A stretch of 64,000 nt of DNA from Patescibacteria group bacterium (GCA_028718605.1 JAQULM010000001.1:337073-401072), one strand, 5' to 3'; counted from the stretch's first letter, positions 14,872-32,607 are shown. A program made the numbers and translations. The notes: generated by a model from the letters alone, not told the origin.

Positions 14872-14920
14872 AAGGTATTAAGGTATATGGTATTAAATAT
14901 GGTTCACTCTTAAGGAACGC

Positions 14921-15476: not shown

Positions 15477-18434
15477 CTACTCAGTTTGCGCATCCGAATA
15501 TTCTTCCGGCGGCTGATAAGCTTTATCAAACATGGCGGCTTCCCCAAAATGCTTCGCCGCGCTCTCAGTATCCCCGAGTGAATCATAGATATGCCCGAGC
15601 CTGCCATGAAGCAACCCAATCTCATACAGTATCTCCTCTCTATCCTGCACGACCCAAATCTGCGAATCGCGAAGCGATGGATCATACCGTGAAACTGCAT
15701 CCTCGAGCAGTACGCGCGCCTCCTCGATTCGGTCGCTGTACGCGTAGGCAGAAGAAAGTAAAAAGTACAGCACTGGCTTGCCGATAGGGTTCAGCTCAAT
15801 CCCCCGCTTCAAATACCGTTCAGCCGCCGCGTAGTCTTTGGCGAGAAGATAGTAACGGCCAAGGCGTTCGTACGGTCTCCAGTCATGGCTGCTGAGGCTG
15901 ATCGTCCGCTCAAATTCTGAAACGAACAGTTGCCGGTACAACGATACGTTCTGGGCATCCGTCGCGAGGTAGTACGCCTGCGCAAGGCCGTAGTGTAAGT
16001 CGTAATTCAATGGGTCCAGGCGCTGCGCAGTCTTCAGCGATGAGAGTGCGGCATCGTACTCGAGATCTTCCATCTGGCGGATGCCGGCGGTCTGCAATGT
16101 TGATGAGGCGAACAGCAATAAACCGCCGAGCATGCCAAGGGCAGCCATGGCGGGAAGGGCCGTGCGGACCGCGCCGCTATAAACTGCGCCGACCGCTCCG
16201 CGTGAAATTGCTGGCTGTTCTCGCCCACGCTGGATTAGAAATAGTTTATACACGCATCCGAGGGTTATAAAAAAAATGATTAGGTTGGTCGGGAACTGCC
16301 AATCAAGTTCCACGAAACCGTGCGTCAGCGCGCCGAGGAGCCCCATGCTCAATCCAAGCATGAGCGCCTGGTCAGTTTTTCGCGTTAGCTGATGGATCTG
16401 CCGCAAACTGGCACCAATGACAAAAAGAATTGATCCGACAAACCAAACAAATACAATACCGCCAACGATCCCCAATTCTGTAAAAAATTTCAGGTATATA
16501 TTATGCGGATCAATGGAATAATAACGGATATCTGTGAGGTACTGGCGGTACAAAATTTTATACGTCTCGAGCCCCGTGCCAATGATCGGGTGGTCGCGGA
16601 ACGAATCAAGCGCACCCTGCCAGAAATGAAGTCGTGCCGTAACCGCATTTTCTTCCGGAGTTTCGGATGAAAAACCGACATCAGCGGCAACAGTAGACGG
16701 CGCAGTACCGGTCTGCCCGGCCTGGGCTTGTGCCTCCTTGACCTGTACCAACGCCCAGCGGCCCGCAACCACGATCAGCGCAATCATCCCAATAGTCAGG
16801 ATAGTGCGAAGTATCTTGCGCTTGCGCTGTATTGAAAAAAATAGTACCACCCCAAGCGGCACGATGCTCGATAACCATGCCCCGCGTGAATATGTCAGCA
16901 CAAAAGTAAGCGTGAAGAGCGCCATCAGTGCGCCATAAGCTATCCGGCGCTTGGTTGTTTCCGCAAAAAGAAGGAATGAAAACGCAAGCGGCAAAGCGTA
17001 CAGGAGAAATCCCGCAAACGGATTATGCTGATAAAACGTCGAAATCGCGCGCAGGTACCCGAAAAACTGCGTTTGGAGAAAAAAGTAAATTCCGATAATT
17101 GAAAGTATGACAGCGAGCAGTACGATAAGCGCGCCGATTTTCTGCGCTTCGGCGTGGGACGTAATAAGGTACACGGTGCCGAAAAACAGCGCAAGGTACG
17201 GCACCCAATGCATGAATGCGGCATAGCTGTCGTACGGCGATACCGAATAGAGTATTGAAGCAAGCATTACTAAGAGAAGAAGCGCAAGCGGAAGTATAAT
17301 ATTGAATCGGAATGGAATCTTCCCCTGCAGGGGTTGCTTCCCTGACCGGATGACGAAAAACAGAAACGCGAACGCCATGACGAATATAAACGTCTGGGCG
17401 AAGAGGTCGCGGCCACCGGTAAAAAAGCTCGGCACGATCGCGACAAGCGCGAGCATGATGACGGACATGAGCTCACGTGCGTTCTTGATTTCGAGGAAAT
17501 AGTACAGGACCCCGAACCCCAAGGCGAATGCCCGGCCGATGATGAAAAATGGTGCGAGGGCACCCTCGATGAACCCGACTCGAAACCCGCGGACTGTCAG
17601 CGGCATAACCAGGGCGATGAGTATTGCTACTTCAGCAATCAGGGCATACCGGACTTCCGGAATCAACGGCAAGACTACGGCAGTGAGGCATGTACCGAAA
17701 AATCCAATAATCTGTGCTTTCAGTGTCTGCGGGGTATAGGAATCACGTAATAGTTTCCTCGGATAGTTTTTATACACGTCCATCCGCCAGTACGAACGCC
17801 AGAACTTTATCCGAAGGTAATCCATGAACTTTGTAGGATGATCGTGGTATACGATAGCACTCCGGGTAAAAACGATTCGGTGTTGTTTTTCAGATAACTT
17901 ATATGCGAGTTGCACATCCTCACTCATCCGCAATTTTTCGTCAAATCCCTCAAGCGAACGGAAAACTTCCGCGCGAATCGCGCCCGCCGAGAAATCCATG
18001 AAATCCAGGCCTTTTGAGCGGGCCATTTTGTCATACCGCTCCTCAAACTCCACCTGCACGAGCCGCGCAACGATACCGGGCTGTTTTGTCCGATACACGC
18101 CCTTGACTGCTTGTACCGACGCATCGGCGAACGGCTTCGCCATTTCCTCGGCCCACTGCCTGTCGGCCTCACAATCAGCATCGATAAAAAGAAGGATATC
18201 ACCACTTGCTTGGCGTGCCCCACAATTCCGTGCAGCTGCAGGTCCCCGGTTCGGCTCGCGGCAGTACCGGACACCAGAAAACTTTCGGACTACCCGCGCC
18301 GTAGCATCAGAAGAGCCATCGTCGATGACGATAATCTCGTATCTGTCTCGGGGGAGCGTCTGATGGAAGAGCGACTTCAGGCACCGTTCAATAGTCCTTT
18401 CGCCGTTAAATACTGGGACAATTATGGAAATCAT
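15477..18434 (-). CDS. fusion protein: GT2 glycosyltransferase + polytopic Wzy_C (O-antigen ligase/polymerase-like) domain + C-terminal TPR repeats; candidate O-oligosaccharyltransferase
   Basis: 985 aa. The N-terminus 'ISIIVPVFNGERTIERCL...YEIIVIDDGSSD' is a GT2 domain. About 12 TM helices follow, containing 'TYSRGAWLSS' and 'RLHFWQGALDSFRDHPIIGTGLETY', which are the Wzy_C family motifs. The C-terminus carries TPR-like repeats ('YDLHYGLAQAYYLA', 'YERLGRYYLLAKDYAAAERYLKRGIELNP'). Its ATG overlaps the upstream GT stop (TAATG). Confidence 0.75.
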   Translation of the reverse strand: MISIIVPVFNGERTIERCLKSLFHQTLPRDRYEIIVIDDGSSDATARVVRKFSGVRYCREPNRGPAAARNCGARQASGDILLFIDADCEADRQWAEEMAKPFADASVQAVKGVYRTKQPGIVARLVQVEFEERYDKMARSKGLDFMDFSAGAIRAEVFRSLEGFDEKLRMSEDVQLAYKLSEKQHRIVFTRSAIVYHDHPTKFMDYLRIKFWRSYWRMDVYKNYPRKLLRDSYTPQTLKAQIIGFFGTCLTAVVLPLIPEVRYALIAEVAILIALVMPLTVRGFRVGFIEGALAPFFIIGRAFALGFGVLYYFLEIKNARELMSVIMLALVAIVPSFFTGGRDLFAQTFIFVMAFAFLFFVIRSGKQPLQGKIPFRFNIILPLALLLLVMLASILYSVSPYDSYAAFMHWVPYLALFFGTVYLITSHAEAQKIGALIVLLAVILSIIGIYFFLQTQFFGYLRAISTFYQHNPFAGFLLYALPLAFSFLLFAETTKRRIAYGALMALFTLTFVLTYSRGAWLSSIVPLGVVLFFSIQRKRKILRTILTIGMIALIVVAGRWALVQVKEAQAQAGQTGTAPSTVAADVGFSSETPEENAVTARLHFWQGALDSFRDHPIIGTGLETYKILYRQYLTDIRYYSIDPHNIYLKFFTELGIVGGIVFVWFVGSILFVIGASLRQIHQLTRKTDQALMLGLSMGLLGALTHGFVELDWQFPTNLIIFFITLGCVYKLFLIQRGREQPAISRGAVGAVYSGAVRTALPAMAALGMLGGLLLFASSTLQTAGIRQMEDLEYDAALSSLKTAQRLDPLNYDLHYGLAQAYYLATDAQNVSLYRQLFVSEFERTISLSSHDWRPYERLGRYYLLAKDYAAAERYLKRGIELNPIGKPVLYFLLSSAYAYSDRIEEARVLLEDAVSRYDPSLRDSQIWVVQDREEILYEIGLLHGRLGHIYDSLGDTESAAKHFGEAAMFDKAYQPPEEYSDAQTE

Positions 18435-19300
18435 TACGGTATAGTTTTTAGCACAGCACGGTAGTCTATTAATTCCCCGCTCTCTGGCAAGCGCCGTATG
18501 CCGAGTTCAAGCCGCAGTGCCGCACGAACGATGGCGCAGCTTGCTCTGCTGCGGTACTGGTAAAAAAAACGCAGGAGTCCGATCCGCTGGTTAATAAACT
18601 TATTATAGCGTTTTTCGGGCGTTTTACCTAAATCATGATGCATGACTGTTGCGTCCGGGCAATACCCGACCTGCCATCCTGCGCGGCGCATGCGGTAGCA
18701 TAGTTCAACATCCTCCATGTACATGAAATACCGCTCGTCAAACATGCCGGCGCGCTGGAGCGCCGTCCGGCGGATCAGCATGCACGACCCGGCAACCCAA
18801 TCCGGATACTGAATATGCGAATACACCGGCGCGCGCCGCTCAAAATATACAGGGACTACTGCATTGATAACCGGGATACGGTCTCCGATTAGTTTTAATA
18901 CCGTGGGAAAACGGCCGATCGAATGCTGCAACGTACCGTCGGGGTTTTCGAGCCGTGCGCCTGCAACACCCACGGCCGGATGCGAACGCAAAAATTCAAG
19001 GAGCGCATCAACAGCACCCTCTTTAACAACCATGTCCGTATTCAACAGGAGGACAAATTCTCCTTCAGACGACCGGATGCCCTGGTTGCATGCACGCGCA
19101 AAACCAACGTTCTCGCTGTTTCGTATGCATAAAACGCTCGGCAATTTCTCAAGCCCGGCAGCCGTGCCATCTGTCGAGTTATTGTCTACGGCGATAATCT
19201 GGGTGTCAATTTTTTCCGTCGCGCGCATGACAGACTCGAGGAACGGGACGATATACCGCGCAGAGCTGTGTGTTACAAAAATGATTGAAAGAGTACGCAT
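18434..19300 (-). CDS. GT2-family glycosyltransferase
   Basis: 'LSIIFVTHSSARYIVPFLESV...IIAVDNNSTDGT' is a GT2 N-terminus with a DxD-type region. The track start at 19330 is GTG. The ATG at 19300 overlaps the upstream stop (ATGA). Confidence 0.75.
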   Translation of the reverse strand: MRTLSIIFVTHSSARYIVPFLESVMRATEKIDTQIIAVDNNSTDGTAAGLEKLPSVLCIRNSENVGFARACNQGIRSSEGEFVLLLNTDMVVKEGAVDALLEFLRSHPAVGVAGARLENPDGTLQHSIGRFPTVLKLIGDRIPVINAVVPVYFERRAPVYSHIQYPDWVAGSCMLIRRTALQRAGMFDERYFMYMEDVELCYRMRRAGWQVGYCPDATVMHHDLGKTPEKRYNKFINQRIGLLRFFYQYRSRASCAIVRAALRLELGIRRLPESGELIDYRAVLKTIP

Positions 19301-20274
19301 CAGGAGTCTATGGAAAAATTCTCTTGCCACTCTCGGAATTGAGAGCTTCCTAACCGGTTCAGTTTCGCAACTAAAGCGCGCTTTCTCAACATCGCCGGGA
19401 GGAAACGAAGAACACTTAACTTGATCCGTGTATGCATCACAGCGCGCTCGAATACAGTGCCAGCAGTGCTCTGGTATGTCACTGGATTCCGCAGTGCACG
19501 CGGCCAGAGCGCGATTGGGTACAGCTTGATCGCCGAAAAAACCCTGTTCCGTCCCGAATAAAAACGCTTCCTGTTATCCCTCCACTGTGACGTGGTAGCG
19601 GACACCTTGTGGTACACCACCGCGGTGGGAATGAACATACATTTCCACCCAGCAAGCCGTATGCGTAATCCTAAATCTGAATCCTCGATGTAAGCAAAAT
19701 GGTCACTGTCAAAATAGTCATCGCCGAGTTTGGATTCCTCCAGCGCCTCCCTGCGATACAGTGCGGCGGCGGCGCACGCGGTCAGACACTCTTCTTTCTT
19801 GAAAAACGTATCAGATTTACCGTGCCCTCGCGGCCCGACTTTCAGGCTGCCGCGGTAATAAAAATCGCCCGCAGAATCAACGATCGTGCGGTTATCGAAA
19901 TACAGCAGTTTGCTCGCGCACACGCCAATCCTTGGATCAGCATCTGCGGCAGATACCAGTTCAGAAAGCCAGTTCTCCTTAACCTCCGTGTCGTTGTTTA
20001 AACATACGACGTACCGGCACCCTGGATCCTCGAGCGCTCGCCGGATACCAACATTATTACCTTCAGCAAAGCCAAAATTTTTTCCCGTTTCAATTATCTG
20101 AACATTGGAAAATTTCTCGCGAACATAGGCGGCTGAACCGTCAGTCGAACCGTTATCAACGAATAGTACCTCGAAGTCTTTATATGTTTGGAGATAAACA
20201 CTCGATAGGCACGTCTGCAGATGCTCGAGACCATTCCAATTTAAAATTATAATAGATACTCGAGCACTATTCAT
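19300..20274 (-). CDS. GT2-family glycosyltransferase
   Basis: 324 aa. 'VSIIILNWNGLEHLQTCLSSVYLQTYKDFEVLFVDNGSTDGS' is the GT2 signature. Confidence 0.75.
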   Translation of the reverse strand: MNSARVSIIILNWNGLEHLQTCLSSVYLQTYKDFEVLFVDNGSTDGSAAYVREKFSNVQIIETGKNFGFAEGNNVGIRRALEDPGCRYVVCLNNDTEVKENWLSELVSAADADPRIGVCASKLLYFDNRTIVDSAGDFYYRGSLKVGPRGHGKSDTFFKKEECLTACAAAALYRREALEESKLGDDYFDSDHFAYIEDSDLGLRIRLAGWKCMFIPTAVVYHKVSATTSQWRDNRKRFYSGRNRVFSAIKLYPIALWPRALRNPVTYQSTAGTVFERAVMHTRIKLSVLRFLPAMLRKRALVAKLNRLGSSQFREWQENFSIDS

Positions 20275-20422
20275 GAATCGTCTCCGTTAACATTTATCTG
20301 CTGACCAATTAAAATATGCATGCGTTTTAAACAATCGAGTACTGGATTTTTTATAAAAATGTTACGTATCAATAGTACCTCTCAATTCGACTAATATCAA
20401 GGTTTACAGTGATGCGATTTCA

Positions 20423-20452
20423 TTGAATCATGCACTTGTATATGTTATAAAT
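20423..20452 (+). promoter_or_regulatory. sigma70-like promoter for 20508 gene (-35 TTGAAT, 17-nt spacer, -10 TATAAAT)
   Basis: TTGAATcatgcacttgtatatgtTATAAAT sits in the AT-rich divergent intergenic region 20275..20507. Confidence 0.3.
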
Positions 20453-20507
20453 AGAACATGCCGAAACTTTAATTGCTGTTTACCGACAATCTGACACAAA
20501 TAAAAGA

Positions 20508-22268
20508 ATGGATAACTTTTTCTATAAAATCATACGATATCTTTACTGGAGACTCCGCTGGTTGCTCAGTAAATGTAAGGCACTTTTTTTTCAAGTATTT
20601 GCGAACCAGAACAAGGAGCCCCGATATAAATACCATAAACGATTAATTCCTCGGGCAGCGATCGAGGCATTAGCGGCCCAGCCGAAAATATCAGTTATCA
20701 TGCCTGTCTTTAATATCGATTTGAAGTGGCTGAATAAAGCCATCAACTCGGTTAAAAATCAATCATACGCGAATTGGGAGCTGTGTATTGCCGACGATTG
20801 TTCAACAAATGAAAAAACCGTGCGCTTCCTAAAAAATATTCAGGACCAGCGCATACGAATTGTTTTTTTAAAAAAGAACGCCGGAATAGCAGCCGCTTCA
20901 AATGAAGCTTTGAAGCTCGCTTCAGGGGAATATGTCACTTTCCTTGATCATGATGACGAACTTACGCCAGATGCTTTATACGAAGTAGCGAAAAAAATTA
21001 ATGAAACCGGCGCTGAATTAATATACTCAGACGAAGATAAAATTACACCCAGCGGAACGTATATCGATCCGCATTTCAAACCAGACTACTCCCCCGATTT
21101 ATTACTTTCCCAAAATTACATTTGCCATCTATCAGCATACAAGAAACGAATCATCGATGCCCTTGGTGGATTGCGACGTGGCTTCGATGGATCGCAAGAC
21201 CATGATTTGCTGTTGAGGTTTACCGAAAAAACTGCTGCAATATCACATATTTCAAAAGTGCTCTACCACTGGAGAGCAGTCCCGGGATCAGTTGCCCACA
21301 CCTTCTCCTCGAAATCATATGCCTGGGAAGCGGGCCAAAGGGCATTGCAGGAAGCATTGTATAGAAGAAATATTGGCGGTACGGCATTCAGAGGCAAATT
21401 CCCAGGCACGTATCGAATAAAGAGAACCATAAAGAAAAAACCCTTAATCAGCATTATCATTCCGTTTAAAAATCACGTCAGTGAATTAAAAAAACTAATA
21501 CACTCGATCACAACGAAATCAACGTACGATAATTTTGAAATTATTGGCATTGATAATAACAGCACAGAACAAGAAACGATCGATTTTATCAAAGCGATAC
21601 AAAAACAGGATGCGAGAATAAAAATATTCGCCGACAACGCCCCGTTCAACTACTCTCGGCTCAATAATTATGGTGCTTCACGCGCACGCGGGGAACATCT
21701 CCTACTACTGAATAATGATACCGAAATTATCTCCCCCGACTGGATAGAGCGCTTGCTTTGCCATTCACAGCGGGACGAAGTAGGAATTGTGGGTGCAAAA
21801 CTTTACTATTTCAACAACACGATCCAGCACGCAGGAATCATTATTGGAATCGGCGGCGTTGCGGGGCACCCGCATAAATTTCTCGATAAAAAACAGCGTG
21901 GCTACATGTGTAGGCCTCATTTGACGCAGAACGTATCAGCAGTTACAACCGCATGCGCTATGATAAAAAGTTCCCTGTACAAGCAACTGGGGGGGCTGGA
22001 TGAAAAAAACCTGCCAATCGCGTTTAATGATGTTGATTTCTGTTTAAGGCTCCGCGAAAAAGGTTACCTGAATATTTTCACTCCCGAATGCGAGCTCTAC
22101 CATTATGAATCAAGGTCAAGGGGGCAGGAAGATTCTCAGGAAAAGAAGGACCGCTTCGCCGGTGAAGTCCGCTTTATGCAAAAACGACATCAGGCAATAG
22201 TAAGTGCTGGCGACCCCTACTACAACCCGAACCTCACCTTGGAAAATGAAAACTTTTGGTTGAAGTAA
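20508..22268 (+). CDS. two-domain GT2 glycosyltransferase (tandem GT2 modules)
   Basis: 586 aa. The first GT2 module is 'ISVIMPVFNIDLKWLNKAINSVKNQSYANWELCIADDCST' and the second is 'ISIIIPFKNHVSELKKLIHSI...FEIIGIDNNSTEQET'. Confidence 0.75.
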   Translation: MDNFFYKIIRYLYWRLRWLLSKCKALFFQVFANQNKEPRYKYHKRLIPRAAIEALAAQPKISVIMPVFNIDLKWLNKAINSVKNQSYANWELCIADDCSTNEKTVRFLKNIQDQRIRIVFLKKNAGIAAASNEALKLASGEYVTFLDHDDELTPDALYEVAKKINETGAELIYSDEDKITPSGTYIDPHFKPDYSPDLLLSQNYICHLSAYKKRIIDALGGLRRGFDGSQDHDLLLRFTEKTAAISHISKVLYHWRAVPGSVAHTFSSKSYAWEAGQRALQEALYRRNIGGTAFRGKFPGTYRIKRTIKKKPLISIIIPFKNHVSELKKLIHSITTKSTYDNFEIIGIDNNSTEQETIDFIKAIQKQDARIKIFADNAPFNYSRLNNYGASRARGEHLLLLNNDTEIISPDWIERLLCHSQRDEVGIVGAKLYYFNNTIQHAGIIIGIGGVAGHPHKFLDKKQRGYMCRPHLTQNVSAVTTACAMIKSSLYKQLGGLDEKNLPIAFNDVDFCLRLREKGYLNIFTPECELYHYESRSRGQEDSQEKKDRFAGEVRFMQKRHQAIVSAGDPYYNPNLTLENENFWLK

Positions 22269-22333
22269 TTCCAGTTTCTGCACCAAAAATCCAGGATCGG
22301 CTATAATCCCGGTTAATTATATACTACTAACAT

Positions 22334-23221
22334 TTACTTTTTCTTTTGAAACGGTATTTTTGTTTTTACTTTGTGCAAGAATGTAGCAATTTTCCAGCTT
22401 CGGGAATTGTAAATAGTTTGAATTTCAGCTTCAAGCTTGCCCATTTTTTGCTGAGCGCGCGCGCGTTCTTGCTGAAGCTCAAACACCTGCGCGTCCAATC
22501 TATTGAGCTTCGTGCCGTCGCCAATAACAATCGAGCTGCGAACCGTCTGACCGATCGGCTGTTTGCTGCATACGCCGAGAATGTATCGATGCTGCTCGGG
22601 ATTCTGGCTCACGGACCTATACACATCGATGTTCTTGATGCAGGCATCAGTCTTCTCCTGCAATTGATCTTCCGAAGAGATACCATCGCTTATAATATTG
22701 TTTTGATAGAAAAAACATAGGTGGGGGAAATACTGCGCGAGAAATGCTTTAAATCCCTGCAACGTAAATTCCTTTTTATGGAACTGGTTTCCTGAAGGAT
22801 AGACGGGCACGTTGGGGGTTGAAATTATCAGCATTCCCGCATCTTTCAAGACGCGCCGCACTTCCTTCAAAAAAACGTCTTGGCCTCCGAAATGTTCGAT
22901 TGTTTCGAACGAAACGACGATATCGACTGAATGGTCATCCAAAGGGATTGCATGGGCGTCGCCTACGAGATACCGGGTTCGTGCTGTTGAATAGGTCTTG
23001 TTAGAATAGCGGATAGCTTCATCTGAAGAGTCAACACCAATAACCCTCGCAGCGCCATGATCTGCCAAGTATTTCGACCCGTACCCGCTGCCGCAGGCGA
23101 TATCGAGGACTGTTTTATTTTTTACAAATTGGGCAGCAAAAGCATAACGAGCTATATGCTCCAAATAATAAGGCTCCTCTTTATCAAATTCTGGGATCAT
23201 ACGCTCACCCGTTGATTTCAT
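22334..23221 (-). CDS. class I SAM-dependent methyltransferase with C-terminal coiled-coil
   Basis: 'VLDIACGSGYGSKYLADHG' is the glycine-rich SAM-binding motif I, and 'IVVSFETIEHF' is the post-I region. The C-terminal roughly 60 aa ('LNRLDAQVFELQQERARAQQKMGKLEAEIQTIY') is predicted coiled-coil. The track start at 23236 is TTG; the ATG at 23221 is used. Confidence 0.7.
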   Translation of the reverse strand: MKSTGERMIPEFDKEEPYYLEHIARYAFAAQFVKNKTVLDIACGSGYGSKYLADHGAARVIGVDSSDEAIRYSNKTYSTARTRYLVGDAHAIPLDDHSVDIVVSFETIEHFGGQDVFLKEVRRVLKDAGMLIISTPNVPVYPSGNQFHKKEFTLQGFKAFLAQYFPHLCFFYQNNIISDGISSEDQLQEKTDACIKNIDVYRSVSQNPEQHRYILGVCSKQPIGQTVRSSIVIGDGTKLNRLDAQVFELQQERARAQQKMGKLEAEIQTIYNSRSWKIATFLHKVKTKIPFQKKK

Positions 23222-23222
23222 A

Positions 23223-23915
23223 CTACGCTTTATCAATGATGAAAATATACCGCAATGGCACTCCTGAATTGAATAATGAAAATAGTGGATTAAAAAATGT
23301 AAAACTCTTCATTGTTTTATGAGCGAAAAATCTCGGGAATCTGAATTGCATCGTAATTAAATAATACCATATACGGATGTTTGCATTCTTTTTTATTTGT
23401 ATGCGCAATGAATCGCCTCCCGCAGTGCTTTTGATATAGTGGATAATTTCGTCTCGATCCGGATGACCATACTTGAGATGCTGGTCGAGCATCTCGAGCT
23501 TTTCAACATGATGCCCGTAGTAATAATCTCCAAACCTTTTTACCATCTTCCAGCCTTCGCGTCCACATGGCACTGCCAAGATTATTCTTTTCTTTGTAAC
23601 GCGTATCAGCTCTCCAATCATTGCTTTCTTGTCTGCCGGTTTTTCGATATGCTCGATGGCGTCAACGCAAATTGAAATATTGAAAAAATTATCTGGATAC
23701 TGAAGATTCGTTCCGCGAGATCTTACGTTTGTAACATTTGGCAGAGTACTCCCGCTTTCGATAAAATCATAATTAATGAATTTGCATTCAGGCATCAATT
23801 CTCCGATTCCGCCGAGGACCCCACCCCCTACTTCTAACACCTCCTGCCTCCGATAATCGGCAACTTCTCGGATTGCCTTGACGACAGGAATATACCGCTG
23901 TAATGTATCGAGCAT
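23223..23915 (-). CDS. SAM-dependent methyltransferase-like protein
   Basis: 230 aa. 'VLEVGGGVLGG' is motif I-like and 'CVDAIEHIEKP...LIRVTKKRIILAVP' are Methyltransf_11/23-like motifs. Confidence 0.6.
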   Translation of the reverse strand: MLDTLQRYIPVVKAIREVADYRRQEVLEVGGGVLGGIGELMPECKFINYDFIESGSTLPNVTNVRSRGTNLQYPDNFFNISICVDAIEHIEKPADKKAMIGELIRVTKKRIILAVPCGREGWKMVKRFGDYYYGHHVEKLEMLDQHLKYGHPDRDEIIHYIKSTAGGDSLRIQIKKNANIRIWYYLITMQFRFPRFFAHKTMKSFTFFNPLFSLFNSGVPLRYIFIIDKA

Positions 23916-23921
23916 ATATTT

Positions 23922-25103
23922 TTAAAACCTCCACGTATACGGGAACTGAATAAAGCCGAAATACTTTTTTTGATTTTCATTTGCGATATAAAATCGGAAA
24001 ATTCTTTCAACTCTGTCAAAAATCAAATCTCCGCTTTTGTCGGCGACTGCAGGCGTAACATAGTACATGCCATCGAGGAACGGGTTGTTTTGGATAATAA
24101 ACTCAACCTGTTTTTCACCCTCAACTTTTTCTACCACCAAATGGTCGATGCCCATATTGATGCCTGAAAGCAGTAAGCCCTGCTCGTTTGCAAACTCTAA
24201 GCCAAAAATGACGTTATGCACTGCCCGATTTGTTTTACAAAAAATTTTGATGCGTATTGTTTCACCCGTTTTAAAAGTTTTTTTCTCCTCACCTTGCTCA
24301 TTAGAAAAAGCTACTTTAGTAATATAAATCCCGCTTGTCGCCCGTGCCTCGATATTTTCTGGCGTCGTGTCAGTAAATGATTGGCCATATGCAGTAATCA
24401 TCTCCCTCGGTTTTCCGATATTTTTCACCTTTCCGCCCTCAATAAATACAACGCGATCACAAAATCTTTCGATCGAACCCAAATCGTGGCTTACGAAAAT
24501 AATGGTCTTTTTCTCGCGCTTTAGCCTATCAAATGTGTTGAAGCATTTTCTCTGGAAATCTGCATCCCCAACCGCTAAGACTTCGTCGACGAGCAAAATA
24601 TCAGCGTCTGACTGTATTGCCGTAGAAAACGCAAGCCGTACCTGCATACCTGAAGAAAAGTTCTTCAGCTTCTGGTCTACAAAGTTTTCAAGTTCTGCAA
24701 ATTTAATAATGCTATCGAACTTCTGATCGATCGCCGTGCGCGATAGTCCAAGAATTGCTCCATACAGGTACACATTCTCCCGCGCCGTCAAATCTGGTTG
24801 AAAACCTACGCCAAGTTCAAGGAAGGGGGCTATCGAACCAAGTACGGCAATTCTGCCAGAATTCGGCTGCAAAATCCCAGCGATAATTTTTAAAAGCGTT
24901 GATTTTCCGGATCCATTGCGGCCGATGATTCCGAGAAATTCCCCCTCCCTCACACTGAATGAAACTTCCCGAAGCGCATGAAACTGTTCATAGGTGCGGT
25001 GACTGAATGCGCTCACAAAATACTCCTTGAGCGTGGTTTTACGTTCATGGGGGATTTTGAAAACCTTAGTTATTTTATTTATTTCAATAATCGTTTCGAC
25101 CAT
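23922..25103 (-). CDS. wzt: polysaccharide ABC exporter ATP-binding protein with C-terminal carbohydrate-binding extension (Wzt/TagH-like)
   Basis: Walker A 'GIIGRNGSGKSTLLKIIAGI', ABC signature 'FSSGMQVRLAFS' and Walker B 'ILLVDE' are present. A roughly 150-aa C-terminal extension (residues about 250-400) matches the Wzt terminal-residue-binding domain. The track start is TTG; the ATG at 25103 (MVETIIEINKITKVF) is used. Confidence 0.85.
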   Translation of the reverse strand: MVETIIEINKITKVFKIPHERKTTLKEYFVSAFSHRTYEQFHALREVSFSVREGEFLGIIGRNGSGKSTLLKIIAGILQPNSGRIAVLGSIAPFLELGVGFQPDLTARENVYLYGAILGLSRTAIDQKFDSIIKFAELENFVDQKLKNFSSGMQVRLAFSTAIQSDADILLVDEVLAVGDADFQRKCFNTFDRLKREKKTIIFVSHDLGSIERFCDRVVFIEGGKVKNIGKPREMITAYGQSFTDTTPENIEARATSGIYITKVAFSNEQGEEKKTFKTGETIRIKIFCKTNRAVHNVIFGLEFANEQGLLLSGINMGIDHLVVEKVEGEKQVEFIIQNNPFLDGMYYVTPAVADKSGDLIFDRVERIFRFYIANENQKKYFGFIQFPYTWRF

Positions 25104-25146
25104 ACACTTTCTTTTCTTCTCAACCAAGATTGGCTTGGAACACGTA

Positions 25147-25875
25147 TTAGACTTTCTTTAATAATAATACAATATTTATCTCATATAAGTTCGAATCGAG
25201 TATTATAAAATTAGAAAGCTCCCGCTGCAACCATTGCATGAAGGCCATGAATGATTGATAGTCCCAAACATGCACGTGAATGCTTGCTTGCCCGCGATAC
25301 GCCCCTTCGCATTGGAACGTGTCAGTAATCTCATTAACCGTCACCATAAAATCCTCGTAGTGACCACGCGAAACACTCGTGGTTTTCTGATTAAAATCAT
25401 CCTGCAAATGCTGCAGCGGAGTGCGCTGCCGGTTTTTGTCAAACGTGAAACGCTTGTCAGGAACTACGATATACACCATGCCTCCCTTTTTAACGACCCT
25501 GAGCCATTCCTGTATCGCGCTCCCAGGGTCCGGAAGGTGCTCAAGCAAGTGCGAGTTACACACAAAATCAAGTGAATTATCTGGAATCGTGTCGAGATTC
25601 TGGGCGTTGCAGATATAATCCACATGTATAATTTTATCATTGGGGACATTCTTATGCGGCTTATAAATCTCTTTCAATTTCTCCGTGCTTGCTACATCAA
25701 CATACCGCATCATCGTATTTGAATTAATAGGAAATGGTGACGCAAGCGCACCAATTTCAATTCCTTCCCCAGAAAAATGATCATGCACGAATTCTTTCCA
25801 ATTCGGTCCAATAATTTTATAACTTCCAACCAACCGTTCTCGCCATTTATTGAGTAACGCCTGAATACGTCTCAT
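25147..25875 (-). CDS. SAM-dependent methyltransferase (Methyltransf_11-like)
   Basis: 242 aa. 'LDFVCNSHLLEHLPDP' and 'LRVVKKGGMVYIVVP' are typical class I methyltransferase motifs. Confidence 0.65.
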   Translation of the reverse strand: MRRIQALLNKWRERLVGSYKIIGPNWKEFVHDHFSGEGIEIGALASPFPINSNTMMRYVDVASTEKLKEIYKPHKNVPNDKIIHVDYICNAQNLDTIPDNSLDFVCNSHLLEHLPDPGSAIQEWLRVVKKGGMVYIVVPDKRFTFDKNRQRTPLQHLQDDFNQKTTSVSRGHYEDFMVTVNEITDTFQCEGAYRGQASIHVHVWDYQSFMAFMQWLQRELSNFIILDSNLYEINIVLLLKKV

Positions 25876-25925
25876 TTGAAAGGCTTTCGGTTATTTTTTT
25901 ATTACACGATCCCGAATAATTCACG

Positions 25926-26693
25926 CTATAAATCCTCAGCAAAATACGGCTCCCGTTTTTTAAACACGAGGTACCCGACAACGAATAGTGCGATTGCCAT
26001 AAAGAATGATGCGATAACTCCCTTCAAATCAGGGGCAATTCCATAAATAACGACGTCCCGTGAATATTTTATAATCCGTGTCATCGGGTTCATGAAATAC
26101 CAGAAATGGTATTTCGCGGGAATCATGCTCATAGAGTAAATAATCGGCGTCGCCCAAAAACCGATCTGAAGCATGACCTCCCAGATATGGGACAGATCGC
26201 GGACTTTTATATTCAATGCGGAGATGAGCAGCCCAAGCCCCGTGGTGATCAAATAAAGTTCAAGCAGAAGGAGCGGAAATAATACTACGGTCGCGTGTAC
26301 CGGAACGCCGCTGGCAATAAAAAAAATCATAAACACGATAAGATTCAGGAAAAGCGTAATCAGGGAAGTAACCGTGGAGGCAACCACGATAATGGTGCGC
26401 GGGAATGACACGCGTGCAATCAAACCGCCTTTGTTCACCAAATTACTGATAGCGGTAGTCGTGCCTTCAGCGAGGTACCCCCAGAGAATAACGCCAAGCA
26501 GCAAATACAGGTTGTACTGCGCAATATCGAACCGCATGAATACAGAAAAAACCAAATACAAGACGCCGAAAAGGAGGAGCGGCTTTACCAGTGACCACAG
26601 GTACCCGAGCACGGATCCCTGGTACCGGAGCTTGAAATCCGCGATGGCAAGTTCGCGCACCAGGTTCCAGTATCGTTGGCGTTTTATCGTCAT
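25926..26693 (-). CDS. wzm: ABC-2 type polysaccharide exporter permease
   Basis: 255 aa with six TM helices. 'ADFKLRYQGSVLGYLWSLVKPLL' is the Wzm/ABC-2 N-terminal signature. It lies immediately upstream of the methyltransferase and wzt genes. Confidence 0.8.
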   Translation of the reverse strand: MTIKRQRYWNLVRELAIADFKLRYQGSVLGYLWSLVKPLLLFGVLYLVFSVFMRFDIAQYNLYLLLGVILWGYLAEGTTTAISNLVNKGGLIARVSFPRTIIVVASTVTSLITLFLNLIVFMIFFIASGVPVHATVVLFPLLLLELYLITTGLGLLISALNIKVRDLSHIWEVMLQIGFWATPIIYSMSMIPAKYHFWYFMNPMTRIIKYSRDVVIYGIAPDLKGVIASFFMAIALFVVGYLVFKKREPYFAEDL

Positions 26694-26728: not shown

Positions 26729-26757
26729 ATTGTACCACTGTAATAACCGTTTTTCAA
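26729..26757 (-). promoter_or_regulatory. sigma70-like promoter for wzm-MT-wzt-MT-MT operon (-35 TTGAAA, 17 nt, -10 TACAAT)
   Basis: Read on the minus strand as TTGAAAaacggttattacagtggTACAAT, about 36 nt upstream of the wzm ATG. Confidence 0.35.
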
Positions 26758-26798: not shown

Positions 26799-26834
26799 CA
26801 AAAAGTGCCTGCACATTCTATGAGGCACTTTTTG
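26799..26834 (-). terminator. rho-independent terminator after pilin 26872..27372
   Basis: Stem AGTGCCT/AGGCACT (26804-26810/26823-26829) with a 12-nt loop. On the minus strand it is followed by TTTTTGAATTTG, and on the plus strand by TTTTT as well, so it is bidirectional. Confidence 0.55.
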
Positions 26835-26871: not shown

Positions 26872-27372
26872 CTATCCGCAAGTTCCTGCATCTGGAGAAT
26901 TGTCTCCGGACGTACCGTCAGACTTGATCCAGAAGTGTGTACTGCCGTCGCCGCCCTCGAGCGGTGTTGTCAGCACAAAGTCCTGCCAATCCTCACCAAC
27001 AGCTCCACAGGTTTGGTACGTATAGTGGTTGGTCGCATCATTGACCGGATCCTCCACCGCTTTACTAATATACTCACTGCAGATCGGATTCGCAGCTAGG
27101 TCGGTCGTACAGTCAGTATTGAAGATCGAGCCGTCTGCGTCCTGAACAGTGCTCACATCACCATCGTCAGTTACATCAGACGGATACGCATTTTGATGAT
27201 CATCAGCATACAGCACCAGCGCGGTCTTGACCTGTGAGAGGTCGGACTTTCTGGTTGCGTCGCGCGCCTTTTCACGGGCGCCGTTCAACGCGACCAAGCC
27301 GATGGTTGCCAAGATACCGATGATGGCAATAACGACCAATAACTCAATAAGGGTGAAACCTTTCCTTCTCAT
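26872..27372 (-). CDS. type IV pilin (PilA-like; probable major pilin)
   Basis: 'MRRKG|FTLIELLVVIAIIGILATIGLVALNGAREKARDATRKSDLSQVKTALVLY'. The ATG at 27372 has a strong SD (AGGAGGTGA) 7 nt upstream. The track N-terminus adds 25 codons with no support. The gene has its own promoter and terminator. Confidence 0.85.
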   Translation of the reverse strand: MRRKGFTLIELLVVIAIIGILATIGLVALNGAREKARDATRKSDLSQVKTALVLYADDHQNAYPSDVTDDGDVSTVQDADGSIFNTDCTTDLAANPICSEYISKAVEDPVNDATNHYTYQTCGAVGEDWQDFVLTTPLEGGDGSTHFWIKSDGTSGDNSPDAGTCG

Positions 27373-27565
27373 TTCCTCTTCACCTCCTCTCGTGACCCAG
27401 GAACACGAGCACGCACTCTCCGCATATGCTGGCTGTTCACAGATCACGGATCCGAAATTGATCCGTGGGCTGCCAGTGCGAAACGATATGCTTCCCGTAG
27501 TATTCCCGAGGGATATTACTTATTAAAAGAAAAGAACGATGAAGTAGTACCCAAAGTATAAAATA

Positions 27566-27594
27566 ATAGTATCACATTTTCGGGCAAAAGTCAA
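27566..27594 (-). promoter_or_regulatory. sigma70-like promoter for pilin 26872..27372 (-35 TTGACT, 17 nt, -10 TACTAT) with roughly 185-nt leader
   Basis: Read on the minus strand as TTGACTtttgcccgaaaatgtgaTACTAT. The leader contains an 8-bp hairpin CACGGATC-cgaaatt-GATCCGTG at 27440..27462. Confidence 0.4.
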
Positions 27595-27627
27595 TGTACA
27601 ACACCCACTTTTCCACAGCATTTTCGC

Positions 27628-28833
27628 CTATATCGCGCCTGATAAGTTGTATATCGGAAGGATGATTGCCGTTACCAGAAAGCCGACGGCGATGCCGAGA
27701 ATGACCATAATCACCGGCTCGATCAGGGCTGTCAAGTTTTTCAATGAATTTTCAAGTTCCCTCGTATAAAAATCAGCGACTTTCATCAGTATCCGGTCAA
27801 GCTGGCCGGATTGCTCTCCGACGACCATCATCTGCGAGAGCATCAGGGGCACGTCTTTGCTTTTCATGAACAGCGTGGTGATGGACGACCCCCCCTCAAC
27901 CACCCGAATCGTTGCCTTGGTCAAGTCTTGATAAATAGTATTGCCGATAACATCTGCCACAATATCGAGCGACCGTGTCAACGGCACGCCGGAGGTGAGC
28001 AGGGTCGAGAGCGAACGTGCAAAGCGCGCTAAATACATTCTGGTGAAAATTGCACCGACTATCGGTACGCGAATTTTCATCTTATCGATGACGTGCTGGC
28101 CAGCCGCGGTCTTTTTATACGACCGGAAACCAACGACACAGCCAGCGACGATTGCGGAAATAATCCACCAGTAATTCCGGATTACATCGCTGAACCCGAT
28201 CAGGATTTTCGTCGGCAGGGGCAGGGCAACGCCGCCGGCCGTGAGAATTTCCGTGATTTGGGGCAGAACAAAGATGACCATCATCACGCCGACGCCAAGC
28301 AAGGCGCAAAAAATGAACGCGGGGTAGATCATCGCGCCTTTTGCCTTGCCGCGCATGTCATAATCCTTTTCCTGCTGGTCCGCGAGATAGTCGAGGATTT
28401 CGTCCAACCGTCCGGTGGTTTCTGCGGAACGGACCATCTGTATGAAAAAATTGCCGAATTCCTTCGGGTACTTGCCGAGCGCTTGCGACAGCTTCGCGCC
28501 GCCGTCAACTTCATCCGCAACGTCAGAGATAATCCGCTCGAACTGTTTATTTTGCGTCTGCCGCGCCAGCACCTTGAGCGCCCGGACAAGCGGGACATTC
28601 GACGTCATCATGACTGAGATCTGCCGTGCGAAGACAACAATATCTTTCGGCTTCACGCGACTGCCGACCTGGAAGCCCTTGAGGAACGGCAACGCATGAT
28701 GCTCTTTCAGTGATACAATAAACAACTGCTTGTCACGCAGAATTCCGTACGCGATATTTTCGCTCGGCGCGACCACGACGCCGCTGATCAGGTCGCCACC
28801 TGGATTCCGTGCTTTATAACTATACTCGGCCAT
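27628..28833 (-). CDS. pilC: type IV pilus assembly platform protein (GspF/PilC family)
   Basis: 401 aa. The duplicated T2SSF domain architecture and three TM segments are typical of PilC. Confidence 0.9.
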   Translation of the reverse strand: MAEYSYKARNPGGDLISGVVVAPSENIAYGILRDKQLFIVSLKEHHALPFLKGFQVGSRVKPKDIVVFARQISVMMTSNVPLVRALKVLARQTQNKQFERIISDVADEVDGGAKLSQALGKYPKEFGNFFIQMVRSAETTGRLDEILDYLADQQEKDYDMRGKAKGAMIYPAFIFCALLGVGVMMVIFVLPQITEILTAGGVALPLPTKILIGFSDVIRNYWWIISAIVAGCVVGFRSYKKTAAGQHVIDKMKIRVPIVGAIFTRMYLARFARSLSTLLTSGVPLTRSLDIVADVIGNTIYQDLTKATIRVVEGGSSITTLFMKSKDVPLMLSQMMVVGEQSGQLDRILMKVADFYTRELENSLKNLTALIEPVIMVILGIAVGFLVTAIILPIYNLSGAI

Positions 28834-28864
28834 AGAATATCTTGGGTTTGGATAAGTAAAAAGT

Positions 28865-29254
28865 TTACTTGCGCATGATGCCCTTCATCTTCGTGACAAC
28901 TTCAGATGGCATGAAATGCGCCTTGATCAGGTAATCAGATGCGCCAAGATCGAGGCCCTTCTGGACATCATCGCGCTGTCCCAAATTCGTCAGAAGAATC
29001 ACGGGGACATCTTTCGTGCTCGAATCCTCCTTCAAGCTCTTCAATACGTCAAATCCGCTCATTTTCGGAAGCACGACATCGAGTAAGATTATATCCGGGT
29101 TATGCTCTTTTGCGAGCCGCAAGCCCTTTTCGCCATCCGACGCAAGCTGCACGTCGAATCCTTCCAGGTTGAGCTTCGTGACGTACATGCCGGCGAGAAA
29201 TTCATCGTCCTCGACGAGCAAAATTTTAATTTTTTTTACTTTTGTGTCTGCCAT
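28865..29254 (-). CDS. single-domain response regulator (CheY-like receiver) embedded in pilus operon
   Basis: 129 aa. 'KILLVEDDEF', 'IILLDVVLP', 'LLTN', 'YLIKA'. About 55 percent identical to 4963..5397. It lies between pilB and pilC. Confidence 0.8.
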   Translation of the reverse strand: MADTKVKKIKILLVEDDEFLAGMYVTKLNLEGFDVQLASDGEKGLRLAKEHNPDIILLDVVLPKMSGFDVLKSLKEDSSTKDVPVILLTNLGQRDDVQKGLDLGASDYLIKAHFMPSEVVTKMKGIMRK

Positions 29255-29295
29255 ATGCCTTCTTGCGTTAATGATAGTTATTGAATGCGAATTAT

Positions 29296-31044
29296 TTACT
29301 CTTTGGTCACCCGGAGAATCTCTGCCAAGGAAGTCTTGCCTTCAAGCGCCTTCAGCAATCCATCCTGGAGCATGGGGACCATATTCTGGCGTTTGGACGC
29401 ATTGCGTATTTCATCGATTGTCGGATTGGTGACACAAACTTTTTTCAAGTCTTCGTCCATTTCCAGAATCTCATTAATTAACAATCGGCCTTTGTACCCC
29501 GTCTGTTCGCAGCGAACGCATCCTTTTCCTTCATGGAATACGAGCTTGTCTGGTTTTTTGCCCAAACGCTCCACCATGATCGCTTCAGGAATTATCTCAA
29601 GATATTTCCGCACTTCTTTCTCGAGCTCGGCTGGCAACGTAGTCTCCTTCTGGCAGTACGGGCAGAGGCGCCGCACAAGCCGCTGTGCTGCAACGGTCGA
29701 TAGCGAAGCGGTGATAAGAAAAGGCTCGATCTTCATGTCAATAAGCCGCGGGATCGCCCCGAACGAATCGTTCGTGTGGAGCGTCGATAGTACGAGATGC
29801 CCTGTCAGTGCGGCATGCACCGCTAGTTCCGCAGTTTCATTATCACGAATTTCGCCAACCATGATCACGTCAGGGTCCTGCCGGAGGATCGAACGCAACC
29901 CAGCGGCAAACGTCAGTCCCACCTCGGGCCTGATCTGGGATTGGTTCACGCCATTAATATAGTACTCAACAGGGTCTTCCAGGGTGACGATATTGATGGA
30001 TTCATCATTTAAAATTGTAAGCAATGCGGATAGCGTCGTGGACTTGCCTGAGCCAGTCGGACCAGTAAGTAAAATCATGCCGACGCTCTTTTCAACCGAT
30101 GCCTGCATGACCTTCAGGTCTCTGCCTTCAAAACCCAGTTTTTCCAGGTCGAGCACAACTGCTGCACGATCCAAAATACGCATCACTACTTTTTCGTTGG
30201 TGAAGAGCGGCAAGGTCGACACACGATAATCAATGATGCGGCCGTCCCATTCCGTTCGGAAACGCCCATCTTGCGGTATGCGGGTTTCATCGAGCTTTAA
30301 ATTTGAGAGCACCTTGATGCGGGCGACAATGGCAGAATGCACATACCGCGGCAAGACAAGAGATGTATGCAGTACGCCGTCCACGCGGTACCTGACTCTC
30401 GTCTCATTTTCAACCGGCTCAATATGGATATCCGACGCATTGCCCTCGACTGCATGTTTGAGGATGACTGAAACCATCTTCGATACCGGCGCGCTCTTTA
30501 CCACCTTGTCGGCCGTCTTCTCGCCCTCGAGTATCTCATCAGCGGCCGTTTTCTGCGACTGGTCTGCGCCAGCGAGCGCTTCTTCAACCTCGGCGCCGAG
30601 TGTCGCATACTGCTTTGAGGCATACCGAAAACCGCTCGCAGAAATGATGGAGTATTTCACCTTGAAACCATGCTCGCGTGCCAGGAATTCCACCGCCTCG
30701 ATCGCTTTAAAATCGCTCGGGTCTTCCATCGCAATGCTGACGTCAATCCCCGCTTTTTCAAAAGCGACAACATGGTAGTTCTGGGCGAGTTCACGCGGGA
30801 TGATATTCAGGACAGTCTGCGATATCGTTTTGCCGAAGAGATCGATATACGGAACGCCGAGCACGTCAGCCCGCGCTTTTGCCACATCCTCTTCTGATAT
30901 GAGGCCGCGCTGTATCGCCATTTCGGCGACTTCATTCTCGTCCTGGGTACGCTGGCGGAGCTCATCGATCCGGTCAGAAGAAATCACCCCCCGCTCCAAA
31001 AGGAGGTTCAAGAGAGATGGTTTGTTTGTAATGCTGGAATCCAT
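29296..31044 (-). CDS. pilB: type IV pilus assembly ATPase (GspE/PilB family)
   Basis: Walker A 'LLTGPTGSGKSTTL', Asp/His boxes, a tetracysteine 'CPYC...CVRC' motif and an N-terminal GSPII-like domain. The track's first 57 codons are Arg-rich junk. The ATG at 31044 (MDSSITNKPSLLNLLLERGVIS...) is used. Confidence 0.9.
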   Translation of the reverse strand: MDSSITNKPSLLNLLLERGVISSDRIDELRQRTQDENEVAEMAIQRGLISEEDVAKARADVLGVPYIDLFGKTISQTVLNIIPRELAQNYHVVAFEKAGIDVSIAMEDPSDFKAIEAVEFLAREHGFKVKYSIISASGFRYASKQYATLGAEVEEALAGADQSQKTAADEILEGEKTADKVVKSAPVSKMVSVILKHAVEGNASDIHIEPVENETRVRYRVDGVLHTSLVLPRYVHSAIVARIKVLSNLKLDETRIPQDGRFRTEWDGRIIDYRVSTLPLFTNEKVVMRILDRAAVVLDLEKLGFEGRDLKVMQASVEKSVGMILLTGPTGSGKSTTLSALLTILNDESINIVTLEDPVEYYINGVNQSQIRPEVGLTFAAGLRSILRQDPDVIMVGEIRDNETAELAVHAALTGHLVLSTLHTNDSFGAIPRLIDMKIEPFLITASLSTVAAQRLVRRLCPYCQKETTLPAELEKEVRKYLEIIPEAIMVERLGKKPDKLVFHEGKGCVRCEQTGYKGRLLINEILEMDEDLKKVCVTNPTIDEIRNASKRQNMVPMLQDGLLKALEGKTSLAEILRVTKE

Positions 31045-31063
31045 GCGGGTATAAACTGTTTTT

Positions 31064-31987: not shown

Positions 31988-32023
31988 TTTTTCACCGCCG
32001 ATCTGCATATGCATCCGAGATAA

Positions 32024-32602: not shown

Positions 32603-32607
32603 AGGCG

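Follow-up and report, generated by a model that had tools for sequence, protein, structure and literature searches.

How a member of the Patescibacteria might build, finish and export a long surface glycan is the question raised by a gene block in a 64,000-nucleotide (nt) stretch of DNA, here called the window, from a Patescibacteria group bacterium (GCA_028718605.1, JAQULM010000001.1:337073-401072). Between positions 22,334 and 26,693, on the minus strand, genes for the permease (Wzm) and the ATPase (Wzt) of an ATP-binding cassette (ABC) exporter are interleaved with three genes for S-adenosylmethionine (SAM) methyltransferases (MTs), here named MT1, MT2 and MT3. A further gene, encoding a protein with two family 2 glycosyltransferase (GT2) domains and here named GT2-GT2, converges on MT3 from the opposite strand. 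The reading we favour, with a probability of about 0.6, is that these genes specify ABC-transporter-dependent surface-glycan assembly by a polymerase-terminator-checkpoint route. The gene order wzm, MT1, wzt, MT2, MT3 had been proposed in an initial annotation of this DNA, and all five open reading frames (ORFs) were recovered in that order. The parts of the module are as follows.

25926..26693, minus strand: wzm, ABC-2 type permease of the glycan exporter, 255 aa (Pfam ABC2_membrane, 1.4e-13)
25147..25875, minus strand: MT1, class I SAM methyltransferase, 242 aa, between wzm and wzt (Methyltransf_11, 4e-11)
23922..25127, minus strand: wzt, ABC ATPase with a C-terminal carbohydrate-binding domain (ABC_tran, 6e-24; Wzt_C PF14524, 3.4e-20)
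23925..24362, minus strand: carbohydrate-binding domain of Wzt, residues ~256-401, 146 aa (Wzt_C)
23223..23915, minus strand: MT2, divergent class I SAM methyltransferase, 230 aa (Methyltransf_11, 2e-3, below cut-off)
22334..23236 (ORF), minus strand: MT3, candidate chain terminator, 295 aa from the ATG at 23221 (Methyltransf_11, 1e-23)
22409..22516, minus strand: heptad helix of MT3, residues 241-276 in 300-aa numbering (AlphaFold2 (AF2) helix)
22358..22402, minus strand: C-terminal basic helix of MT3, residues 279-293, with an S..W[KR] motif (SRSWKIATFLHKVKTK)
20508..22268, plus strand: GT2-GT2, candidate polymerase, 586 aa, convergent with MT3 (two Glycos_transf_2 domains, 2.8e-53)

The gene wzm is encoded in the same operon as wzt, one gene apart, and in 46 related loci Wzm homologues were found directly upstream of wzt; against the NCBIfam galactan Wzm model the permease gave 4.5e-16, which is below the cut-off. 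The Wzt translation carries the ATPase motifs (Walker A GRNGSGKST, signature SSGM, and ILLVDE), and in a search of the PDB its residues 18-395 aligned over both domains with Wzt of Aquifex aeolicus (8DKU, 7K2T; E 9e-62), TagH/TarH and RfbE being the next best matches. An extension of roughly 150 aa past the nucleotide-binding domain had been predicted, and it was found to comprise 146 aa (residues ~256-401) that score 72.9 bits as Wzt_C (PF14524) against a cut-off of 30.4.

When the window binding domain alone was run against the PDB by phmmer, marginal matches were obtained to the Aquifex domain only (E 0.4-0.5). A profile was then used that had the window domain as its first row together with the domains of 17 Wzt genes from related loci (18 in total), and its matches in the whole PDB were Wzt carbohydrate-binding domains only: those of Aquifex (8DKY/6O14, 4e-21), Klebsiella O12/Raoultella (5HNO, 5e-10) and Escherichia coli O9a (2R5O, 6e-10). 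The comparison with the 2R5O family that the initial annotation had proposed thus revealed homology at the sequence level, with 2R5O itself among the matches. On sequence grounds the C-terminal domain of the window Wzt certainly belongs to the Wzt carbohydrate-binding domain family, and it would be expected to adopt the beta-sandwich fold. Among 23 homologues Tyr247, in the Wzt hinge, is invariant, and the Asn that serves as the sugar-ring ligand (N324) is nearly so. We regard it as highly likely that the module is of the predicted type, a Wzm/Wzt exporter with a cap-binding-type domain, and that it operates a cap-dependent export checkpoint.

The family of MT3 was surveyed with one genome per species, giving 80 loci in which ORFs were called and searched with the window proteins. 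These loci came from at least 19 genomes of the Candidate Phyla Radiation (CPR), and also from Chloroflexota, Firmicutes, Actinobacteria and Proteobacteria. A Wzt-type ATPase (E<1e-40) lay within 10 kb of the MT3 homologue in 48 of the 80. In 27 of the 80 the MT3 homologue was directly downstream of wzt, that is, it started -100 to +150 nt from the wzt stop on the same strand, and in 23 of these 27 adjacent cases Wzt was at least 370 aa long and had the C-terminal extension. Eight more loci had a single gene of ~700-830 nt between wzt and the MT3 homologue; since this intervening gene is MT1-like in L036, L040, L046 and L064, the two-methyltransferase arrangement is a recurrent one. The order in L003 is wzm, wzt (with Wzt_C), methyltransferase, with Wzy_C nearby, and in L001 the Wzt_C domain is found 7 kb from the methyltransferase.

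The hallmark of the polymerase-terminator-checkpoint strategy is a coiled-coil protein whose distal end bears a terminator; its orthologues may have or lack glycosyltransferase (GT) modules, some stopping after the coiled coil, and the polymerase modules may be fused (Klebsiella pneumoniae O7 ORF6, O12 WbbB) or separate (O3/O9a WbdD with WbdA, O4) (PMC11231755). About 30 of the 80 MT3 relatives form the N-terminal domain of proteins of 500-1660 aa. All seven of the fusions scanned consist of the methyltransferase, an unannotated stretch of ~170-400 residues and two GT modules (GT2-GT4, GT4-GT2 or GT2-GT2), one of the seven having a second methyltransferase domain as well. Fused MT-coil-GT-GT relatives were found in Clostridia, Proteobacteria and Chloroflexota, and coil-like segments were detected in the linkers of four of the seven, these being the ones that a crude heptad scan could evaluate, with L007 as the exception. 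The window GT2-GT2 shares 48% identity across 526 aa with residues 426-933 of the MT-coil-GT2-GT2 protein of L011, a Dehalococcoidia locus, and the N-terminal methyltransferase of the same fusion is 41% identical to MT3. The window does not have the methyltransferase, coil and GT modules in a single polypeptide, and from the two identities it follows that the window encodes as two proteins what these relatives encode as one. It is, by this comparison, a split variant with terminator and polymerase on opposite strands, GT2-GT2 being the predicted orthologue of the polymerase half of the MT-coil-GT2-GT2 fusions and MT3 that of the methyltransferase-coil half. In the Dehalococcoidia/Chloroflexota loci L011, L018, L019 and L024, the partner of an MT-coil-GT2-GT2 fusion or MT3-like gene is a short Wzt (256-274 aa) with no binding domain, and termination may occur without an export checkpoint in these lineages.

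The stop codon of MT2 (TAG, 23225-23223) is followed by 1 nt and then by the ATG of MT3 at 23221. Translated from this codon MT3 opens MKSTGERM, and because its homologues open MKxTGERM the ATG at 23221 is most likely the start. The AlphaFold model of MT3, with a predicted local distance difference test (pLDDT) score of 86.9, places a class I methyltransferase core at residues 1-238 and a single helix of 36 residues at 241-276 (block pLDDT 87-95). The heptad a/d positions of this helix are L244, L247, V251, L254, R258, A261, M265, L268, I272 and I275, eight of the ten being hydrophobic and one more Ala. The initial annotation had given the last methyltransferase a coiled coil of ~60 aa; a heptad helix is indeed present in the AF2 model, but it is ~36 aa long (~5 nm) and is followed by a separate basic helix of 15 residues (279-293). 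The crude heptad scan was unspecific, since a segment scored in 37% of whole-protein shuffles and in 18% of tail shuffles, and is not stand-alone evidence, so that support for the coil was drawn from the AF2 helix and from conservation in the family.

The tail segment with the S..W[KR] motif covers residues 278-293 (nt 22358-22405) and has a net charge of +5. Of the 120 closest MT3 homologues 75 carry this motif, ~20 residues before the C-terminus, where it ends the coil, and it also stands at the coil-GT junction of some fused relatives; the loci listed for its conservation are L007, L018, L019, L048 and L079. It may act as a coil cap, a docking site or a membrane contact. In the family 115 to 239 residues separate the catalytic STPN motif from S..W[KR], the mode being 139, which is also the window value, and when this spacing is scaled from the window (139-residue spacing, 36-residue helix) a helix segment of roughly 12 to 135 residues, most often ~35, is implied. 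An amphipathic membrane anchor like that of WbdD was also considered for the MT3 tail and was unsupported, the hydrophobic moment not being significant. We lean narrowly towards MT3 being a terminator that makes a methyl cap.

All three SAM methyltransferases of the initial annotation proved to be genuine class I enzymes by Pfam matches, family alignments and models. In the MT1 family GxGxExG, D60, LEH, PDxRxxFDxxRxxT and HxH are invariant, and the AF2 model of MT1 (pLDDT 91) has a complete Rossmann methyltransferase fold; its Foldseek neighbours were generic (Coq5, phosphatidylethanolamine (PE) N-methyltransferase, RebM) and give no substrate clue. For MT2 a word-indexed search returned three proteins only, while an exhaustive search returned 999 representatives at E<1e-3. 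Since all 34 aligned members of its family match Methyltransf_11 (best 9e-14), MT2 is to be regarded as a genuine, divergent class I methyltransferase; its invariant residues are G30, D50, D85 and E88-H89, and its homologues P0220 and P0221 adjoin GT genes. The neighbours of MT1 and MT3 include the sugar O-methyltransferases RebM and AtmM, and equally Coq5, PE N-methyltransferases and others. Best matches to UbiE- or rRNA-type enzymes with conserved substrate-specific motifs, which had been named beforehand as the finding that would speak against a glycan substrate, were not seen, none of the three coming near the NCBIfam cut-off of UbiE, UbiG, BioC, rRNA or other non-carbohydrate methyltransferase families.

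As these searches are generic, it is from genomic context that any positive case for a sugar substrate must be made. MT1 relatives lie in polysaccharide clusters in two of the three contexts read (L085 and L087), the homologue in L087 belonging to a Wzx-flippase cluster, and that in L086 lies outside any glycan cluster. Positions 1-9000 of L085 (a 195-kb contig of JGI 3300044836) hold wzm-wzt (with Wzt_C), five separate methyltransferase genes, GT2 genes and dTDP-sugar genes, a multiplicity which argues that many such methyltransferases decorate rather than cap. MT1-type enzymes occur in a Wzx cluster and five-methyltransferase clusters exist, so that MT1 and MT2 could just as well O-methylate internal residues.

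A mechanism for the polymerase-terminator-checkpoint route can be proposed from these parts. GT2-GT2 would extend a repeat polymer, built on a polyprenol-linked primer, on the cytoplasmic side of the membrane. MT3, oligomerised through its ~5-nm heptad helix and held by it away from the polymerase, would be tethered or docked by its conserved basic S..W[KR] helix and would O-methylate the non-reducing terminal sugar, at which point growth would stop. The binding domain of Wzt would then read this terminus and license ATP-driven export through Wzm, after which a neighbouring protein that combines GT2, Wzy_C and TPR domains (GT2-Wzy_C-TPR) might move the chain to an acceptor outside the membrane. 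MT1 and MT2 could supply extra methyl groups on the cap or methylate internal residues.

Several observations weigh against this scheme, some of them in the binding domain itself. The Aquifex domain binds 3-O-methyl-mannose or 3-O-methyl-rhamnose caps, Asn313 touching the sugar ring and Leu300, Thr346, Ala348 and Trp362 forming the methyl pocket (PMC9445017). When the Aquifex residues were mapped through the alignment (chain index = paper number + 1), N324 (N313), T358 (T346) and A360 (A348) were found to be kept in the window, whereas W362 is replaced by R372, L300 by E311 and H350 by A362. There are further changes at H355 (S365) and V380 (G391), and the trap loop is 2 residues shorter than in Aquifex. 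Of the 18 aligned domains, eight, several CPR ones among them, keep a tryptophan at the Trp362 position, and many CPR homologues read 'DW' where the window reads 'DR'. Wzt binding domains are known to diverge along with the cap. Given the changes of Trp362 to Arg372, His350 to Ala and Leu300 to Glu and the shorter loop, the ligand specificity of the window domain probably differs from that of Aquifex.

The remaining difficulties concern the methyltransferases and the gene content. MT3 has as its neighbours in sequence and fold searches generic class I methyltransferases, and WbdD was absent among the matches listed for it (single-sequence and profile searches of the PDB, Foldseek), where a weak similarity is still possible. 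The predicted coiled-coil motifs of WbdD lie in a C-terminal domain of 249 residues (460-708) (PMC3482155), and the 36-aa helix of MT3 is far shorter than this. The hydrophobic moment of the MT3 tail helix was not above that of shuffles. Three methyltransferases exceed the needs of one cap. Eleven of the 48 MT3-linked wzt genes, that of L011 included, lack the binding domain, and this type of methyltransferase therefore does not strictly require a cap checkpoint. Finally, among the window ORFs of at least 150 aa (three small ones at 453-2308 excepted), no initiating phosphoglycosyl transferase or sugar-nucleotide gene was found.

The main rival to the polymerase-terminator-checkpoint reading is decoration of internal residues by some or all of the methyltransferases, which would act on the repeat or on sugar-nucleotide precursors; the Wzt domain would read a different cap, perhaps an anionic one in view of Arg372, or the backbone, and the kinetics of polymerase and exporter would set chain length. 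It draws on the five-methyltransferase wzm/wzt cluster L085, on the MT1 homologues in the Wzx cluster L087, where no cap checkpoint operates, and outside glycan clusters in L086, on the 11 Wzt proteins without a binding domain, and on the Arg that stands in the window for the methyl-pocket Trp of Aquifex. Decoration does not, however, account for MT3-family genes directly following an extended wzt in 23 of the 27 adjacent cases, nor for the relatives of MT3 that are joined by a coil to GT modules, which is the published signature of a terminator (PMC11231755), and in Geobacillus the N-terminal methyltransferase domain of WsaE, encoded at the same gene position, makes a terminal cap (PMC2943079). 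We consider it unlikely. A TagGH-like exporter of a teichoic-acid-type wall polymer, with the methyltransferases acting on non-glycan substrates, was examined as well, since the best NCBIfam matches of the nucleotide-binding domain are TagH models (5e-57), the CPR host is monoderm-like, and a Glyphos_transf gene occurs in the homologous Moranbacteria cluster L001. The TagH score of 194 bits is nevertheless far below the 538-bit cut-off and the C-terminal domain is Wzt_C with no TagH extension, on which grounds the teichoic-acid exporter was rejected; in addition, no glycerol-/ribitol-phosphate transferase or cytidylyltransferase was found among the window ORFs scanned, and the polymerase candidate is GT2-GT2. 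This exporter type is very improbable here.

A further reading is one in which MT3 caps the chain but does not measure it, its short helix serving to oligomerise the enzyme or to dock it to polymerase or membrane while the terminator:polymerase ratio sets length stochastically. A helix of ~36 aa is the mode by motif spacing in the 120 closest homologues, which are mostly free-standing; several fusions have longer coil-like regions by the crude heptad scan only; and stoichiometry also shapes chain length in E. coli O9a, according to work cited in PMC11231755. On the other side, the coil separates terminator from polymerase and sets the minimum length in every characterised system of this kind (PMC11231755), and the range of coil lengths in the MT3 family is wide, as expected if length were tuned. 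A terminator without a ruler is a serious possibility that we would put forward only tentatively, and that the MT3 helix is a true chain-length ruler is rather doubtful. The interpretation given in the initial annotation is thus borne out in part: the Wzt domain is homologous to the solved cap-binding domains, and the MT3 family is coupled to wzt and has coil-GT fusions, whereas a ruler role is conjecture with a helix of only ~36 aa, and a methyl cap is plausible, the Aquifex methyl pocket being changed.

Among known systems, the surface-layer (S-layer) glycan pathway of Geobacillus stearothermophilus is the closest analogue for a monoderm host. In the slg cluster of strain NRS 2004/3a wzm, wzt and wsaE overlap, the N-terminal methyltransferase of WsaE adds a 2-O-methyl cap that Wzt has been proposed to read, and a Wzy_C enzyme (WsaB; in P. 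alvei WsfB, with TPR) moves the chain to protein, these S-layer glycan clusters being of low GC content (PMC2943079). The window shares with slg the monoderm host, a candidate capping-methyltransferase gene right after wzm/wzt, a Wzy_C-family transferase, and low GC content that suggests lateral transfer; a Wzy_C domain with TPR near the glycan genes, as in WsaB/WsfB/PglL-type O-glycosylation, is present in the 985-aa GT2-Wzy_C-TPR protein. WsaE carries its methyltransferase and two rhamnosyltransferase modules in one chain; MT3 and GT2-GT2, by contrast, are products of separate, convergent genes, and unlike slg the window has two extra methyltransferases interleaved, with no rml or S-layer gene seen.

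Of the solved structures, Aquifex aeolicus WzmWzt (8DKU, 7K2T, 6O14, 8DKY) is nearest to the window Wzt over both domains (PMC9445017). With the WbdD(O8)-WbdA pair of E. coli O8/K. pneumoniae O5 and with WbdD of O9a, MT3 shares a free-standing layout of N-terminal methyltransferase, helical region and non-catalytic tail (PMC3482155, PMC11231755), and the locus shares with O8/O9a a separate, candidate multi-module polymerase and a putative Wzt cap-checking domain; unlike O9a WbdD, MT3 has no kinase domain, and the host has no lipopolysaccharide. K. pneumoniae O7 ORF6, with the order MT-kinase-carbohydrate-binding module-coiled coil-GT2-GT2, resembles the window in its methyltransferase, coil and two GT2 modules, and the fused L011 protein links both window proteins to this layout (PMC11231755), but MT3 is without the 223-aa kinase-like insert and the immunoglobulin-like module of ORF6, and the O7 cap is methyl-phosphate. 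The WbbB-Wzt system of K. pneumoniae O12/Raoultella terrigena (5HNO) resembles the module proposed here in its cap-dependent checkpoint, coiled-coil terminator-polymerase and homologous binding domains, and differs in that its cap is beta-Kdo (Kdo, 3-deoxy-D-manno-octulosonic acid) added by a GT99 module and all modules are in one polypeptide.

The signals around the operon and the genes next to the module are as follows.

26729..26757, minus strand: promoter-like site upstream of wzm (TTGAAA-17-TACAAT)
22291..22312, minus strand: terminator-like hairpin 3' of the MT3 stop (CCGGGATTATAGCCGATCCTGG then ATTTTTGG)
26800-26833, minus strand: inverted repeat after a pilin stop (AAAAAGTGCCT ... AGGCACTTTTT, 12-nt loop)
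15477..18434, minus strand: GT2-Wzy_C-TPR fusion, 985 aa, candidate ligase/O-oligosaccharyltransferase (Pfam)
18434..19330 and 19300..20274, minus strand: two single-module GT2 genes, candidate primer/adaptor transferases
~20000..26300: low-GC island with GT2-GT2, MT3, MT2, wzt, MT1 and most of wzm

Co-transcription of the five genes, as had been proposed, is consistent with their operon-like packing and with the promoter-like site and terminator-like hairpin that flank them. The promoter-like site has an upstream TG and ten of 12 consensus matches, and lies between the hairpin 3' of the upstream pilin gene and the wzm start. Across the region, promoter consensus sites were not above chance, so that only the positions of such sites count, and it is the position of this one that is suggestive. 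The inverted repeat at 26800-26833, which the terminator scan had passed over owing to its long loop (12 nt), is likely a terminator that parts the pilin transcript from the wzm operon. The start of Wzt is probably the ATG at 25103, giving 393 aa, the same length as in the public record.

The initial annotation had mentioned neither GT2-GT2 as candidate polymerase nor the Wzy_C-TPR protein as candidate ligase, nor the low-GC island or the type IV pilus locus around the block. GC content in the island is 36-46%, versus 50-55% in the flanks, and an AT-rich divergent intergenic region of 233 nt (20275-20507) forms one of its edges. This sharp island, which takes in the 3' part of wzm, suggests that the whole terminator-polymerase-exporter module (20.0-26.7 kb) was laterally acquired. 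The neighbouring GT2-Wzy_C-TPR gene has host-like GC content, and its product matches Glycos_transf_2 (2.4e-35), Wzy_C (1.8e-23) and TPR (9e-10), its matches to the NCBIfam O-glycosylation ligase and RfaL being below cut-off. Its composition is unusual, with an N-terminal GT2, a multi-span Wzy_C of the O-antigen ligase/PglL type and a C-terminal TPR, and it may be able to ligate the glycan as well as add a sugar. The two single-module GT2 genes are likewise of host-like GC content; they match Glycos_transf_2 at 1.9e-22 and 1.8e-29, with rhamnosyltransferase subfamily matches below cut-off.

The type IV pilus locus encloses the glycan block (11497-15409 and 26872-36078), and has four pilin-like genes with N_methyl motifs, PilD (13618-14370), PilC, PilB, PilO and PilM, a CheY-like response regulator (28865-29254) and a further pilin (26872-27447) whose translation probably begins at the internal Met that immediately precedes RKGFTLIE. 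No adjacent pilin was found in the 19 other CPR loci with wzm, wzt and MT3, the one regular-expression match not being prepilin-like, and a conserved pilus-glycan linkage was rejected. Since pilin genes are not near the triad elsewhere, the linkage to the pilus is peculiar to this genome and speaks only weakly for pilin glycosylation. Beyond the pilus locus are two giant Cys-rich ORFs on the minus strand, at 36099-47327 (3742 aa, 80 Cys) and 49826-55702 (1958 aa, 53 Cys). Both products are acidic, contain ~17% Ser+Thr, carry a membrane anchor or signal at the N-terminus and match no Pfam family at 1e-4; they might serve as surface adhesins or be glycoprotein acceptors. On the plus strand, 60333-63158 encodes a protein of 941 aa with a T2SS-G/pseudopilin-like segment, bacterial TSP3 repeats and a Calx-beta domain, which may be a pilus-associated adhesin. 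A more far-reaching version of the scheme for this ultra-small CPR bacterium, in which GT2-Wzy_C-TPR would put the methyl-capped polymer onto the type IV pilins or the giant Cys-rich proteins, so that one locus would make a polymer-glycosylated pilus, the split MT3/GT2-GT2 pair would be joined by the S..W[KR] tail, and the Arg372 domain would read a cap unlike methyl, methyl-phosphate or Kdo, is in our view improbable.

Every component of this locus and its overall logic are already known, and no new mechanism is involved; the split terminator-polymerase layout resembles that of E. coli O8/O9a, with a minimal coil. No description of Wzt in Patescibacteria was found in the literature searched, and the polymerase-terminator-checkpoint route appears undescribed in CPR, in whose genomes it is common, dozens of them carrying the wzm-wzt-MT triad, as is unsurprising after lateral transfer. 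For glycobiology the locus offers a compact free-standing terminator of 295 aa with a minimal coil, a natural comparison of split and fused forms (MT3 with GT2-GT2 versus the L011-type fusion), and, in the Trp to Arg change, a binding-domain variant useful for the study of cap specificity. A route so far understood from studies of E. coli, Klebsiella, Aquifex and S-layer systems of Gram-positive bacteria appears to have reached the Patescibacteria by lateral transfer, and the locus points to a likely long-chain surface glycan in the CPR, where cell-surface chemistry presumably governs the attachment of these episymbionts to their hosts.

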